NCBI GenBank assembly: GCA_951406725.2
Contig: OX597820.1
Span: 52,824,001 to 52,888,000 of the forward strand
Direction: 5' to 3'
Source of the DNA: Octopus vulgaris
Lineage: Eukaryota
Length of the DNA stretch: 64,000 bases
In this document: in pieces, positions 2,536 through 57,246 of the stretch
Position numbering within the stretch: the first letter of the stretch is position 1
Layout: each line of letters starts with the position of its first letter
Translations under genes and position numbers: made by a program
The notes under the pieces: generated by a model
Databases searched by the model: none
The model's input: only the letters and a program-made list of their open reading frames with translations
Told to the model about the DNA's origin: nothing

Positions 2536-2622
2536 GGGCCCTTGATGAAACTGGTGCGACTAGAATGCATAACTGCATACAGAGCAATGTGCAGTCGTTG
2601 CAGTCGAAACATATGCAGGTCA
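2536..2622 (+). ncRNA. Degenerate type I hammerhead-like motif in PLE 3' end
   Basis: ggcc-cTTGATGA-a-actg.gcgact...agtcgt.cagt-c-GAAA-CATATG-CA-ggtc. Long stem II and palindromic stem III; cleavage triplet mutated. Confidence 0.5.
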
Positions 2623-2925
2623 GAGTTATATATGCTGCATTAAAATTTTGAATAAATAAGTTTTGGATGTGAATAAATTTCTACTCTTCTCTTCGTTCTC
2701 AATTATATGTAAGTATGCATATATATATATATATAATATATATATATATATATATATATATATATATATATATAGTTAATAAATTCCAGGGTAGCAAAAA
2801 AAATTTTGAAAATTTCTTTGCTACCAGTGGCCTACCGAGAAGAGAAAAACTAGTCAATAGACTATATATTATTCATATAAAAATACACTACATTTAAACA
2901 CATAAGAGATGTGTAAATTACTTTA

Positions 2926-2958
2926 TTTGCTGAAGATAGCTTGAAACCATGGTACAGG
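2926..2958 (+). ncRNA. Ultra-minimal type I hammerhead-like motif
   Basis: tttg CTGAAGA tagctt GAAA ccatgg TA cagg: intact core, palindromic stem III, almost no stem II. Confidence 0.6.
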
Positions 2959-3289
2959 AAATAGAGGGTAAACGTTTTTATTTTCCATTCCCTTTCGAAA
3001 TTACCCCTAATAGTTTAACTACTCCTTCTAACGGGTTAGATATCCTGTTATGGCCATCTCTTATGTGTATGAATACACTGTATATATATATATATATATA
3101 TATATATATATATATATATATATATATATATATATGTGTGTGTGTGTGTGTGTGTGTGTGTATGTGTGTGTGTGTATGTATGTATGTATGTATGTATGTA
3201 TGTATGTATGTATGTATGTATGTATATATGTATGTATGTATGTATGTGTATGTATGTATGTATATACACGCTGCGTATATATATTGCCG

Positions 3290-3520
3290 TTTAAAAGTGT
3301 GGTTGACAACTGGATTTTGGCAAGGAAGTTTAAGGTGTGATTTTGAAATCATGCCATTTTGCCGAGGATCTAACGGCATCTCCGGGTGCATGTTTTATAG
3401 TTAATGAGAGTTGGAGTAATAGAAGCGTTTAAGCAATGTGCACAGGAATGCCAGTTACCCCCGTCAACTTTTATAAAGAATAGGGATGGTGAAGGATTTT
3501 AAAGTAACAAAAGCTTAATG
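3290..3520 (-). pseudogene. Highly decayed Ty3/Gypsy-like RT fragment
   Basis: Minus-strand reads SPSLFFIKVDGGNWHSCAHCLNASITP and [16 protein letters not shown], resembling SPLHMVxKxDGxWRPCGDYRxLN and IFSKIDLxxAYHQIPV. Confidence 0.4.
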
Positions 3521-4089
3521 ACATACATTCAGTTGAATTCAGTGTGGAACATTGTTCGTGATTCCCAGAAGTTTCTGTTAACAGGAAGCTATTAAGTGGG
3601 TATGTGCGTCACAGAAGACATTGAATGCACTAGAAGCGGAACAAAGGGTTATCTGATCAGAATACTAAATGTAGGCCAGATACTGTATCCTTGCTGAATT
3701 GGAGGAGCATTTGTTTAAAACAGTAGATTTTAGAAACCAAAATGCAATGGCAGTTTATGTGATTTGAGCAAAGGGAATTATGTCCCTCTCTCTCTCTCTC
3801 TCTCTCTCTCTCTCTCTCTCTCTCTCTCTCTCTCTCTCTCTCTCCCTGTTTTCCCCATTTACAACACACACACACACATACACACGTACATGCATATATA
3901 TTTGTATTTATATAAACACACACGCATACATATATACATATACACACACATATGTATATAGATAAATATAAACATATATATATATATATATATATATATA
4001 TATATATATATATATATATATATATATATATATATATATATGCATGTATATATACATATATATATATATATATACATATATGCATATAA

Positions 4090-4320
4090 GGCGGCGAGCT
4101 GGCAGAAACTGTAGCACGCCGGGCGAAATGCGTAGCCCTATTTCGTCTGCCGTTACGTTCTGAGTTCAAATTCCGCCGTGGTCGACTTTGCCTTTCATCA
4201 TTTCGGGGTCGATAAATTAAGTACCAGTTACGCACTGGGGTCGATGTAATCGACTTAATCACTTTGTTTGTCCTTGTTTGTCCCCTCTGTGTTTAGCCCA
4301 TTGTGGGTAGTAAAGAAATA
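4090..4320 (+). mobile_element. SINE family D, full length
   Basis: ggcggcgagctggcaga..., B box gagttcaaattcc, core gcctttcatc.tttcggggtcgataaattaagtaccag, tail ..gtgggtagtaaagaaata. Confidence 0.9.
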
Positions 4321-53184: not shown

Positions 53185-53442
53185 AACCAAACTACCCACG
53201 CCGCCCACATCTGGTACCTTAAAAGGAACTCAATCCCCTTCAAGACCAAGTGGAAACTACTACAGAAGGCGCGCTCGTACACAGGAGGACATACCTGCTG
53301 TGACCTATGCATATCAGAGAGCCTAGAGATCTTGTTCGCCAAAGGCCCTCTCCTTAACAAATTTTCAGAACACTCCCCAAATTGCATGCATAAAAAGTAT
53401 GCGAACTACAAGAACTATAGACCTACCCAGCAACCTGATTGA
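53185..53442 (+). pseudogene. Last 85 codons of a Hydra-like PLE ORF (no start; absent from the ORF track)
   Basis: NQTTHAAHIWYLKRNSIPFKTKWKLLQKARSYTGGHTCCDLCISESLEILFAKGPLLNKFSEHSPNCMHKKY...QPD*: the IW.LK / KW / CxLC..E / LLN..SE / C.H motif string. Confidence 0.85.
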
Positions 53443-56400
53443 TGACAACCCCCCCCTACAACCCCCCCCCCAACCCCACTGTTCCCCTAGCACCCCCGAT
53501 TACCTTTTCTCCTAAGACCTTTCACATATTGTATGTGCACGCTTGTATATGTGTATCGTATGTATGTATATATGTATAGAAATGCATGGGTACAGTAGGA
53601 ATATACGCATGTATTATGTGTGTGTGTGTGTGTGTATGTATGCATGTAAAAATATATATGTGTGTATATATATTTGCATATATATATATATATATATGTA
53701 TATATGTATGTGCTTGCATGTGTGTGTGTGTGTATATATGTATATGTGTTTGTATGTATATGTGTATATATGTATATGCATGTGTATGTGTAAATGTATG
53801 TGTTTATGTATGTGTATGTATGTATAAAATATTATATAATTAGGGCTTAGTAAAATAAAATAAATTACTTTGCCACATACTAAACTTTCTAGAAATAGCA
53901 GCCAATAAAGGGTTTTAGCCTCTTCCACTACTTAGAGAATTTTTTCCCTCTAACATTGTTTACTCAAAATAATAATGGTCCCTTTACATACTGAATACTT
54001 GGTGAAATTGATTAATAACTAATTAACTTTACCCTCCCTTGTTGATATATATGTATGTATATGTGTACATGTATGTATATATATGTGTGTGTGTGTATGT
54101 GTGTATGTATGTACTTGTATATGTGTGTGTGTATATGTATGTGTGCGCGTGTGTGTGTATGTATGTGTATGTATATTTATATATGTATATGCATGTATAT
54201 ATATGTGTGTGTATATGTGTATTATGTATGTATTTATATGGATATGATATTTATATATATATGTATGTATATGCATCTGTCTGTGTGTGTGTATGTGTAT
54301 ATATGTGTATCATTATTGCGTATGTATACATGTATATGTGTATATGTATGTGTGTGTGTGTGTGTATATATATATATATATATATATATATATATATATA
54401 TATATATATATATATATATATGTATGTGTATGTACATGTATATATATGTGTGTGTATATATATATATATGTTTATATGTGAGTATGTAGAGATATAAGTA
54501 TATGCATGTGTATATGTGTGTGTGTGTGTATATATATATATATATATATGTATGGGTATGTGTATCAGTGTATATGTATATATGTATGTGTGTGTGTATG
54601 TATAGGTATGTATATGTGTATATATGTATGTGTATATGTGTATATATGTGTATATATATGTATGTATGTGTATGTGTATGTATATGTATGTGTGTGTATG
54701 TGTATGTGTATATATATATATATATATATATATATATATATATATATATATATGTGTGTGTGCGTGTGTGTATGTATGCATATATGTATGTATGCATGTA
54801 TATGTGTATGTATATATGTGTGTAGGTGTGTGCATATATGTATATGTAAGTATGTGTGCGTGTATGAGTATGTATGTATGTATGCTTGCACACGTGTATA
54901 TATGTGTGTGTGTGTATATATATGGATGCGCGTGCGTGTGTGCACGTGTATGGGTACGCATGTATATGTGTATGTGCGTGTATGTGTATACGTGTATGTA
55001 TGTATGTGTGTGCGTATATTTGTATATGTATGTGTGAGTGTGTATATATATATATATATATATATATATAGATGGGTGTGTGTATGCGTATAAATGCATG
55101 TAAGTATGGATGTATGGATGTATGTATGTATGTATACGTATGTATGTGTTTGTGTGTATATGTATGTATGTGTGTGTATGTGTGTATATATATATATGTG
55201 TGTATATATGTTTGTGTATGTATATATATGTGTATGTATGTGTGTGTATGTATATATGTGTGTATGTGTATGTATGTATATATATATATATATATATATG
55301 TATATATATATATATATATATATATATATATATATATATACATATATAGGTATGTATCTGTATGTAGGAGTATATGTGTGTATGTATATGTGTATATATA
55401 TATATATGTATGTATATTTATTGGTGTATATGTATAGACTAGCCTCCTAAAGTGTAGACACGAATCTGTAGGTACGAGTACGTATGTGTATATACGTGAA
55501 CGTATGTAGATGTTTGTATGTATGAATATAACGCGTGCGTACGTGTATGTGTATGAGTGTACGAATGGGTGAATGTACGTGCTAATGAGTGTGCGTGCGG
55601 GAATGAGTACTTGCCTTCTAGTAGACAGACAAATGGACATGCTGCCATAGCCAGGACCCTTAGCTCTAGCGATCAAAGATAACAAAAGTAATAAATGAAG
55701 ATAATAAAATTAAAATTAGGGAATGGGCCTGTATTGGATTGTATATATATATATATATATATATATATATGTATGTATGTGTGTATGTGTAGGTATGTAT
55801 AGGTACACATGTGTATGTGTATGTGTATGTATGTGTGTATATGTATGTATGTGCACACATGTATATATATGTATGCGTGTATATGTATATATATATATAT
55901 ATATATATATATGTACATATGTGTATGTGGGTGTATGTATATATAGGTGTAAATATGTGTATATAGGGAACTAGGTGTGTTGTGTGTGCATGAGTGTATG
56001 TGCGTGTGAATATATATTTTTCTGTGTATATATGTATGCGTGGTCGTGGGTATATATATACATGTGTGTATGCGTGCATGCATGGGAGTGAGTGTATGCA
56101 TATATACGTGTGTGTATGTGTAGACAGGTATATGCATGTGCATGTGTATAAATTTGTATATGTGGGCGGGTGTATGTATGTGTGTATGTAGATATGTATG
56201 TATATGTGTGTGTATGTATATGTGTATATATATATATATATATATATATATATATATGTATATATATGTGTGTATATATATGTGTGTAGATACGTATACA
56301 TATGTGTATAGGTATAAGTGAGAATCTCCTTATTTACCTATAACTCTATCCCCCCTTTTTTTATATATATATTTTTTATATATATATTTTTTATATATAT

Positions 56401-56660
56401 ATATATTTTTTTTTTTTTTTTTTTTTTTTTTTTATTTTATTTTTTATATTTTTATTTTTTTATTTTATTTTTTTTTTTTTTTTTTTATTTTATTTTTTTT
56501 TTTTTTTATTTATCTATTCTTTCATCTAACTTACCACTGACTCCTTGACCACTCCCCCAAGTATGATATTTAGCGCTATGCCTACCCCCAAAAAAGTCCC
56601 CCACCACCACTCCTTTAAACCTGCCTAAATGTATAAATGCTAATACAATTCTTGTTAAAT

Positions 56661-56711
56661 AGCTTCCTGAAGATTTCTCTTGAATGAAACAGTACTAGTC
56701 CTGTAGAAGCT
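56661..56711 (+). ncRNA. Type I hammerhead ribozyme motif, canonical core
   Basis: agcttc CTGAAGA t-ttc tctt gaa-t GAAA cag tactagtc ctg TA gaagct. Predicted cut after GUA at 56705. Confidence 0.8.
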
Positions 56712-57211
56712 CCTTCTATATAATAAATTAATTTTACTCTGCTATGTATTGAGTACCTTACTTACTGTGGTTAACCCCGAATCAACCCGGGACCTACATA
56801 TATAAATATTTATATATATATATATATATATATATATATATATGAAATATCTACTGATATGTAGTACCATGAATTTATAACATTATCACTAACTACATAG
56901 TCATGATTAGCAAAACCAAACCGGTAGAGAAGGTAAATATTCTGAAGACACACCAGATTCTCATCTATGACCTGCAACTCTATTGGATGAGATACGATTT
57001 ATATTCTTTTTAATGCACGTATATATATAATCTATTTTTATTTTACTTGTTTCAGCCATGCGGATGTTGTCAGGGTGGAGCACCAACGTGATATATAAAT
57101 ATATATATATATAGTTAATCCAAACAAGAAAGCGCAAAAAAACACAACAACGCGAGGACGTGGAACAAATATAGTATTATTGGACGCTCAGGAAAGAAGG
57201 AAAGAAGGAGG

Positions 57212-57246
57212 GTTTAACGTTTCGAGCGGAGCTCTTCGTTGGAAAC
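57212..57246 (-). ncRNA. Degenerate minimal hammerhead-like motif (related to 10373)
   Basis: gttt CCAACGA a gagc tcc gctc GAAA cg TT aaac. Confidence 0.5.

Follow-up and report, generated by a model that had tools for sequence, protein, structure and literature searches.

Hammerhead-like motifs in the octopus window (the whole 64-kb stretch of DNA analysed here) are likely to be hammerhead folds in the end repeats of Penelope-like elements (PLEs) that have spread through the copying of uncut RNA, with self-cleavage that would be weak, assisted and dispensable for copying. Three observations bear out the earlier suggestion that these are PLE-type minimal hammerheads: the fold is found at the level of repeat families, the insertions have PLE anatomy, and two families are directly linked to a gene encoding an RT and a GIY-YIG endonuclease. 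In addition, changes in the core are fixed in whole families.

Repeat families in the window

The initial annotation listed about 15 hammerhead-like motifs from unrelated families. The motifs are above chance and their coordinates are right, but their number and intactness were overstated. All 16 listed sites belong to repeat families whose members show the hammerhead fold, and after merging they reduce to 14 insertions and 12 families. Several are related: 10373, 32585 (minus strand) and 45326 form one family with a sister family at 57212, and the 2536 family is similar to that at 45522.

Core and stems are intact at only five of the 16 sites, corresponding to three insertions, so that the view of most listed copies as intact ribozymes is not supported. 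One is a G3-C8 motif (12561-12609, minus strand). Two are U3-A8 motifs (36519-36559, minus; 41296-41336, plus) that form the two arms of one inverted duplication. The last two are identical C3-G8 motifs in a second such duplication (arms about 52256-53152 and 55882-56732): the motif at 56661..56711 (plus), in which stem III is a hairpin and stem II has U.U at its base, precedes a tail some 75 nt long, and its counterpart (52277..52327, minus) lies in the inverted arm.

The other 11 copies are decayed, truncated or core-variant. Among C3-G8 families, the copy at 4818..4909 (minus) carries A9C together with a mutated stem I (its family is canonical in 16 of 17 fetched copies), that at 43117..43200 (plus) a mutated stem I, and that at 34069..34120 (minus) a mutated palindrome, its family having U4 as well as C4 members. 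A C3.A8 mismatch marks the copy at 27505..27540 (plus), whose family is U3-A8 in 14 of 16 fetched copies. In the decayed copy at 2537..2621 (plus) position 16.1 is changed; its family has an extra core base or a U3.G8 wobble (14 of 21 pattern matches). Sites 2926 and 45522 had been misparsed: only the 3' half of a C3-G8 family hammerhead is present in each case (2913..2958 and 45597..45651, both plus), the family's real core lying further upstream and missing here. What looks like a core in the former belongs to the stem II arm of its family, and the stretch at 45522 is not the core of the latter.

This state of the window copies speaks against the idea that the host maintains the motifs as a functional ribozyme repertoire, as do the ordinary transition type of the decay and the finding that the core is about as conserved as the flanks among copies in the two families aligned. 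Very high copy number might favor such a role, which we nevertheless regard as extremely improbable.

In all 12 families the members have a type I topology in which stems I and II pair, many window copies being mutated. As annotated, stem III is usually palindromic (2-6 nt in 11 of the 12 families, the exception being the hairpin of the 56661 family), and all three reported 3-8 states are represented: eight families are C-G, two U-A and one G-C, giving a Watson-Crick pair in 11 of the 12, with the 2536 family ambiguous.

Abundance and 3-8 covariation

We compared the window with 40 global and 40 local dinucleotide shuffles, using a descriptor in which positions 3, 7 and 8 were free. With at least 4 pairs in each stem there were three matches in the window against a shuffle mean of 0.225; with stems of 4 and 3 pairs there were six, against means of 0.675 and 0.525 and a maximum of 3. 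Motif density thus exceeds that of shuffled sequence. One of the six matches (16315, A3-U8) is an unlisted site, probably of chance origin. An Rfam scan with E up to 10 returned 526 matches, of which the best 150 were all microsatellite-driven miRNA. Minimum-energy folding of monomers and dimers gave mixed structures, with a hammerhead-like monomer fold for three of seven motifs.

Evenly spaced genome samples (1.4 Mb) contained 41 descriptor matches against 5.8 in shuffled sequence, and window density is within about twofold of this sample. Matches with a paired 3-8 account for the excess (34 versus 1.8); unpaired matches stay close to the shuffle rate (7 versus about 4). Permitting one core deviation gave 49 matches against 0.33, and a generic pattern across the genome 13,682 against 32. 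Chance matches in AT-rich DNA, to which the two misparsed sites and the unpaired matches might point, are refuted by the paired, one-deviation and genome-wide counts, and we assign them next to no probability. The expectation of a very large and diverse repertoire therefore holds, with tens of thousands of motifs in the genome, although it is neither new (PMC4209133) nor unusually located. Canonical descriptors do miss many of these motifs, as anticipated: one without the extra base after A9 yields zero matches within the window, and descriptors tied to the canonical core would overlook upwards of 25,000 exact copies.

Positions 3 and 8 covary across families: of 16 multi-locus clusters in the fetched DNA, 15 have a 3-8 pair (p ~4e-5 by permutation, for families that are not phylogenetically independent), and the sole unpaired cluster is an artefact of an inverted junction. 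In the genome-wide generic pattern with a 2-nt palindrome, U3-A8 shows a modest excess (248 versus 130), and neither A3-U8 (37 versus 76 for the control, with no A3-U8 family found) nor G3-C8 (14 versus 42) shows any. A 4-nt palindrome likewise gave no overall G3-C8 excess (228 versus 269), yet it exposed one family. Because generic G3-C8 patterns give no overall excess, this state appears to be rare among families.

U4, G5, A6 and A9 are invariant in most families; the A6U family and the C4 subfamilies depart from this, and on their core sequence we file them as variants rather than canonical PLE minimal hammerheads. Such family-fixed changes at core positions 6 and 4 are a larger signal that the initial annotation overlooked. 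Deviations are almost wholly U4C and A6U (24 of 25 single-deviation matches), a restriction compatible both with active variants that are tolerated and with relaxed selection.

A gene-bearing insertion

The U3-A8 pair lies in a single PLE insertion at 36472..41420, which has inverted arms (36472-37976 and 39835-41383), (TA)n at its flanks and a 37-nt tail (41384-41420) on one arm alone. Within it, a 5'-truncated PLE ORF (37814..39229, plus) encodes the C-terminal part of the RT, a Cys-rich linker and a GIY-YIG endonuclease, the protein features of an EN+ PLE; its homology begins near 37976, the inversion junction. In Pfam, GIY-YIG scored E 1.3e-4, at its cut-off, and RVT_1 a weak E 1.3e-3, below cut-off. 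The linker appears to be of the Neptune/Nematis type, a label taken from its motif as given in the accessible part of the literature. The intact minimal hammerhead at 41296..41336 (plus) lies about 2 kb behind the ORF, in the end-repeat position behind the RT gene, and an identical motif occupies the inverted arm (36519..36559, minus). This family is young: of 922 candidates, 40 genomic matches were scored, and all 40 were 100% identical over 101 nt.

Three window insertions consist of an inverted 5'-truncated copy with a tail at one end only, an arrangement that serves as a PLE criterion in the available part of bioRxiv 10.1101/2021.04.23.441226. Sampled copies contain the whole motif with flanks on either side, and their starts cluster 10-90 nt upstream of the core rather than at the cleavage site, in a comparison that needed BLAST matches and to which very short cleaved copies are invisible. 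In our reading, the PLE hammerheads are scattered partly in truncated insertions and partly in units about 200 nt long, the latter likely non-autonomous.

G3-C8 families

The intact G3-C8 motif (12561..12609, minus) combines a 6-bp stem I, an extra base after A9, a 5-bp stem II and a 4-nt palindrome. Its family has 2,649 exact matches in the genome, against 119 with another base at position 3. The motif lies in a fold-back insertion of an element of about 215 nt (12419..12735; like some other feature limits, approximate and read by hand), with a long arm and tail on the minus strand, a short inverted arm and a flanking direct repeat of about 11 nt. Fold-back and one-sided tail recur in this family at independent loci, and an unlisted relic with its core deleted is present at 26109..26166 (plus).

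Many G3-C8 copies are palindromic, which might suggest that the fold-back elements are MITE-like DNA transposons whose resemblance to hammerheads is incidental. However, the arms are unequal, the junction varies by copy, single-arm copies exist, the tail is one-sided only, and the architecture matches that of the ORF-bearing insertion. This reading is largely refuted, and we consider it very improbable.

At 6 of the 16 loci fetched for a second G3-C8 family, the motif follows a PLE ORF on the same strand at a distance of about 190-230 nt, and these ORFs are 41-64% identical to the window protein. Across about 1.9 Mb of fetched sequence, the first G3-C8, A6U and U4C families showed no linkage to a PLE ORF; it is their motif and insertion anatomy that point to a PLE origin. 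G3-C8 and A6U elements are present in sequencing contigs of four organisms with no core change listed, in a comparison that is insensitive, since a known-variable position was likewise unlisted.

To our knowledge, G3-C8 as a third 3-8 pair is known only from engineered mutants. The two natural G3-C8 families and the A6U-fixed family are apparently new: we found no report of natural G3-C8 or A6U in the literature searched. Outside that search, a key 2017 paper by Lunse et al. reportedly describes many dimer-cleaving PLE hammerhead variants, among which G3-C8 or A6U may already be present.

A6U and U4C sister families

The A6U family is abundant (14,944 versus 543 copies, position 7 free across subfamilies), and U4C is recurrent (7,720 versus 2,870 U4). 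In the window, the A6U motif at 10373..10410 (plus) matches the youngest subfamily and retains stems I and II and a 2-nt palindrome; decayed copies are at 32585..32622 (minus, limits approximate) and 45326..45361 (plus). The U4C motif at 57212..57246 (minus) has an additional G5A change in this copy. CpG decay is ruled out as the source of all U4 copies (2,870 U4 versus 218 G5A). A succession from canonical ancestors to variants and then expansion is unsupported by the tree, in which U6 covers the whole clade; its bootstrap is not settled and the direction between U4 and C4 is not resolved.

It could be that every major variant family, including A6U, consists of working ribozymes, with cleavage and then circularisation required for spread, as has been proposed for retrozymes, and the core made more tolerant by a dimer or the PLE protein. 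Subfamilies differ at position 7 but have positions 3-6, 8 and 9 fixed, the A6U family and its U4C sister show compensated changes in stem I, and the genome contains tandem arrays (353-362 nt) that carry C3-G8 and U3-A8 motifs. Furthermore, a viroid tolerates U4C and A6C cleaves slowly, according to the available portions of PMC3088659; the same portions lead one to expect changes at A6 to be deleterious. The abundant families, however, are dispersed monomers or fold-backs rather than head-to-tail arrays, copy ends lie off the cleavage site, and catalytic mutants insert normally (PMC11167929). We therefore consider required cleavage unlikely, though worth keeping in mind.

Proposed spread by copying uncut RNA

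The family-fixed core variants suggest that cutting is likely optional for element spread. In the mechanism we favor, the PLE protein would nick AT-rich DNA, and reverse transcription would start at two sites 100-200 nt downstream of the hammerhead, producing the one-sided tail. Copying would run through the intact hammerhead and often fold back, giving the inverted arm. Self-cleavage would be weak, or aided by a dimer or protein, and not needed for copying.

We predict that the C3-G8, U3-A8 and G3-C8 families probably still cleave slowly, and such persistent cleavage would account for the retention of the 3-8 pair. The A6U family, having amplified all the same, probably cleaves poorly or never, a prediction we make with slightly less assurance; its fold is perhaps kept as part of a protein-binding region. 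As a counterpoint, the pairing of 3-8 in nearly every cluster, the free position 7 and the compensation within stems speak for catalysis having been under selection at some point. It is tempting to speculate, though we hold the idea only tentatively, that a large share of the short interspersed repeats are non-autonomous hammerhead PLE units, the commonest with a crippled A6U core and a fold serving as a protein-recognition element instead of a ribozyme, joined by the natural G3-C8 families. A 2026 octopus repeat annotation (PMC13282606) has 893 recently active unclassified SINE families, and the words hammerhead and ribozyme are absent from it.

Why PLEs carry hammerheads is an open question in the literature available to us, cleavage being dispensable in vitro (PMC11167929). 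This genome supplies natural matched sets: U4 and C4 sister subfamilies, abundant A6U, and C3-G8, U3-A8 and G3-C8 families. The occurrence of G3-C8 in nature also lends evolutionary weight to the 3-8 pair in the active structure.

Comparison with known systems

High copy number, palindromic stem III and U3-A8 were already published in 2014 (Cervera and de la Pena, PMC4209133). The portions of that paper and its supplement available to us describe PLE minimal hammerheads that share with ours the type I fold, the extra base after A9, the palindromic stem III and the end-repeat location. As here, each genome has many divergent families, whose copies are mostly solitary and truncated, and opposite-strand pairs occur. 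U3-A8 families are among them (about 1,300 in Schistosoma mansoni). Counts are higher here, in a large genome (tens of thousands versus 2,000-9,000), and G3-C8, A6U and a family with an extra core base do not appear in those portions.

Similarly, the available portions of Perreault et al. 2011 (PMC3088659) report natural U3-A8, U4C, A6C and U.U at 10.1-11.1 and do not name G3-C8 or A6U. Their variants are rare single examples, whereas here variants define families of thousands.

Non-LTR retrozymes (PMC7229834; bioRxiv 10.64898/2026.07.22.740005) are short non-autonomous hammerhead elements related to PLE end repeats. Tandem arrays of this kind are present at other places in the octopus genome (L077, L138), but a search for head-to-tail hammerhead repeats of 150-450 nt gave no array at the window sites, where the families are instead dispersed monomers or inverted pairs with minimal motifs.

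The Anolis Poseidon PLE (Frangieh et al. 2024, PMC11167929) has in common with our elements an end-repeat hammerhead, a one-sided tail, AT-rich targets and an intact hammerhead in genomic copies; set beside it, the window protein has a Cys-rich linker apparently of the Neptune/Nematis type. In vitro, its catalytic mutants insert normally and two RT starts account for the tail. Its hammerhead cleaves only with protein, and C3G/G8C gives partial rescue: G3-C8 is a laboratory double mutant in Poseidon and the natural state of whole families here.

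Hammerhead motifs in the window and in the genome

The assembly that holds the window comprises 2.80 Gb in 227 contigs, and microsatellites are plentiful in the window. We scanned the window with a type I descriptor that left core positions 3, 7 and 8 free, took stem III as a palindrome or hairpin, and allowed either one additional base following A9 or a single mismatch at the base of stem II. When both stems had to have at least 4 pairs, the window gave 3 matches, compared to a mean of 0.225 across 40 global and 40 local shuffles; with stems of 4 and 3 pairs it gave 6, compared to shuffle means of 0.675 and 0.525 (maximum 3). 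Motif density is above that of shuffled sequence. Five of the 6 looser matches are among the 16 sites of the initial annotation, named here by start position, and these represent three insertions: 36519/41296 form the two arms of one inverted repeat, as do 52277/56661.

The remaining 11 sites fail the descriptor, and each was therefore traced to its genomic family. For every window copy we compared the best 15–30 of 62–1,533 candidate loci, a choice that biases the fetched members toward that copy. All 11 fall in repeat families with a hammerhead fold. The window copies at 2536, 4818, 27504, 32585, 34069, 43117, 45326 and 57212 are mutated, and 10373 agrees with a family whose core is itself non-canonical. 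Only the 3' half is retained at 2926 and 45522, so the core proposed there had been placed on the wrong stretch. The feature is real and of a known kind: the claim of about 15 hammerhead-like motifs stands for family membership, but intact motifs are fewer than claimed.

We also scanned 140 evenly spaced 10-kb pieces of the genome (1.4 Mb) with the strict descriptor, which gave 41 matches versus 5.8 in local shuffles. Positions 3 and 8 were paired in 34 (25 C-G, 4 U-A, 4 G-C and 1 A-U) versus 1.8 shuffled, and 7 of the strict matches stem from a single tandem array. Extrapolation puts the genome total of intact-core motifs, very roughly, at 65,000. Window density is unexceptional, given 3 strict matches in 64 kb where about 1.6 are expected. 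A generic exact C3-G8 pattern with a 2-nt palindrome had 13,682 genome-wide matches versus 32 for its reversed control.

About half of the first 100 of these generic matches belong to a single canonical C3-G8 family, highly abundant and with a stem II of 6 bp (e.g., match G000:C1:585829), which has U4C members too. A possible further relic, absent from the initial annotation, lies at 18990–19060 (+), with a 6-nt palindrome, a paired stem I and one weak relative in the genome sample. Retrozyme-like tandem repeats of 353–362 nt, in which every unit has a type I hammerhead of canonical appearance, occur at the fetched loci L077 (2300–4560; C3-G8), L138 (8650–9040; U3-A8) and L122 (near 8152; U3-A8); their loop 2 is alike, with little similarity otherwise.

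Insertion anatomy

The U3-A8 pair 36519/41296 flanks an ORF at 37814–39229 that encodes the end of a reverse transcriptase (RT) and a GIY-YIG domain. This insertion has inverted arms, an extra 37-nt tail on one arm, and both ends within (TA)n. Two further insertions, the one that holds 56661 and the G3-C8 one at 12419–12735, likewise have unequal arms and one tail. Unequal inverted arms with a single tail are described as a Penelope-like element (PLE) insertion signature in the portion of bioRxiv 10.1101/2021.04.23.441226 available to us, and all three window insertions carry it. The U3-A8 family is young, since 40 of 40 scored matches are identical over 101 nt.

In each arm a 44-nt tandem repeat of 4–5 copies immediately precedes the U3-A8 hammerhead (36573–36757 and 41053–41282). 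Separately, a dispersed repeat forms an inverted pair at 22567–22963 and 62619–63023, 93–96% complementary and about 40 kb apart. Different hammerhead-bearing short elements are often neighbours in one (TA)n tract (loci L151, L176, L183, L187 and L193), and this adjacency suggests shared targeting.

Covariation of the 3-8 pair

The fetched DNA, partly picked for these families, amounts to about 1.98 Mb and yielded 189 descriptor matches, which we clustered. By 3-8 state, the 16 multi-locus clusters comprise 9 C-G, 4 U-A, 2 G-C and 1 C.A. The lone C.A cluster was rejected as an unpaired family; it is an artefact that arises where the G3-C8 element (12419–12735) inverts: at that junction a second hammerhead-like motif with a C3.A8 mismatch lies on the opposite strand, a trap for descriptor scans. 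The proposed 3-8 covariation is thus borne out in the other 15 (permutation p about 4e-5, computed as if clusters shared no ancestry). The 46 single-locus clusters are mixed, with 25 paired.

The first G3-C8 family, that of 12561–12609 (-), is represented by 2,649 exact matches, and in 119 others position 3 carries a different base. The second surfaced among matches of a pattern without overall excess over its control; its 16 fetched loci have a 6-bp stem I and vary at position 7, and in 6 of them a decayed same-strand PLE ORF ends about 190–230 nt upstream. BLAST found no similarity between the two families, which may nevertheless share an origin. A generic genome-wide pattern for A3-U8 with a 2-nt palindrome revealed no such family.

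The second family lies outside the window at loci L291–L306 (e.g., L302, L299 and L298), directly behind a decayed RT and GIY-YIG ORF, and splits into two subfamilies distinguished by their stems I and II.

Families with U4C and A6U cores

Allowing one core deviation and leaving out palindromes without C, we found 49 matches in the 1.4-Mb sample, against 0.33 in shuffled sequence. Of the 49, 24 are intact, 15 carry U4C (in about five families), 9 carry A6U (all in one family) and 1 carries A6G. The A6U family, that of 10373, 32585 and 45326, counts 14,944 exact matches to a 30-mer, against 543 in which position 6 holds a different base, and sampling puts it at about 60,000 copies (95% interval 40,000–86,000); position 7 varies between its subfamilies. 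Its sister family, that of 57212, has 7,720 C4, 2,870 U4 and 218 G5A matches, so both C4 and U4 subfamilies were amplified. Both families form units of ~200–250 nt that lie within (TA)n and have rather well-defined ends. A 65-sequence tree separates them without showing which way the core letters changed. No parent ORF for either was found in about 1.9 Mb of fetched DNA.

Role of cleavage and comparison with published hammerheads

The fold, the insertion anatomy, the RT linkage of two families and the family-fixed variants are established here, and genomic copies contain intact motifs with flanks on both sides. According to the accessible part of PMC11167929, a lizard PLE hammerhead requires protein for cleavage and is dispensable for insertion in vitro. 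Judging from the same source, PLE protein may bind RNA that includes the hammerhead region and nick AT-rich DNA, and uncut RNA may be reverse-transcribed from two internal starts. A short element would then lose little by a weak or dead core, which would fit the success of A6U. The 3-8 pair is kept and tolerated changes are few, which argues that catalysis has been under selection in at least some lineages. We predict that the 3-8 variants quite probably cleave slowly and, with slightly less confidence, that A6U cleaves poorly or not at all.

In the portions available, PMC4209133 already describes such motifs by the thousand in single genomes, in many families and with the extra base, the palindromic stem III and U3-A8, and reports low dimer activity, and PMC3088659 has U3-A8, A6C and U4C occurring naturally. 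Our comparison also took in parts of PMC6765202, PMC7229834, PMC13282606 and bioRxiv 10.64898/2026.07.22.740005. We found no report of natural G3-C8 or A6U in the literature searched, mainly open-access papers. Both the natural families with G3-C8 and the highly abundant family with A6U appear to be new, and with them the role of hammerheads in PLEs can be tested. Whereas G3-C8 is a mutation engineered in the laboratory in the accessible parts of PMC11167929, PMC8495972 and PMC3884650, in this genome it forms natural families.
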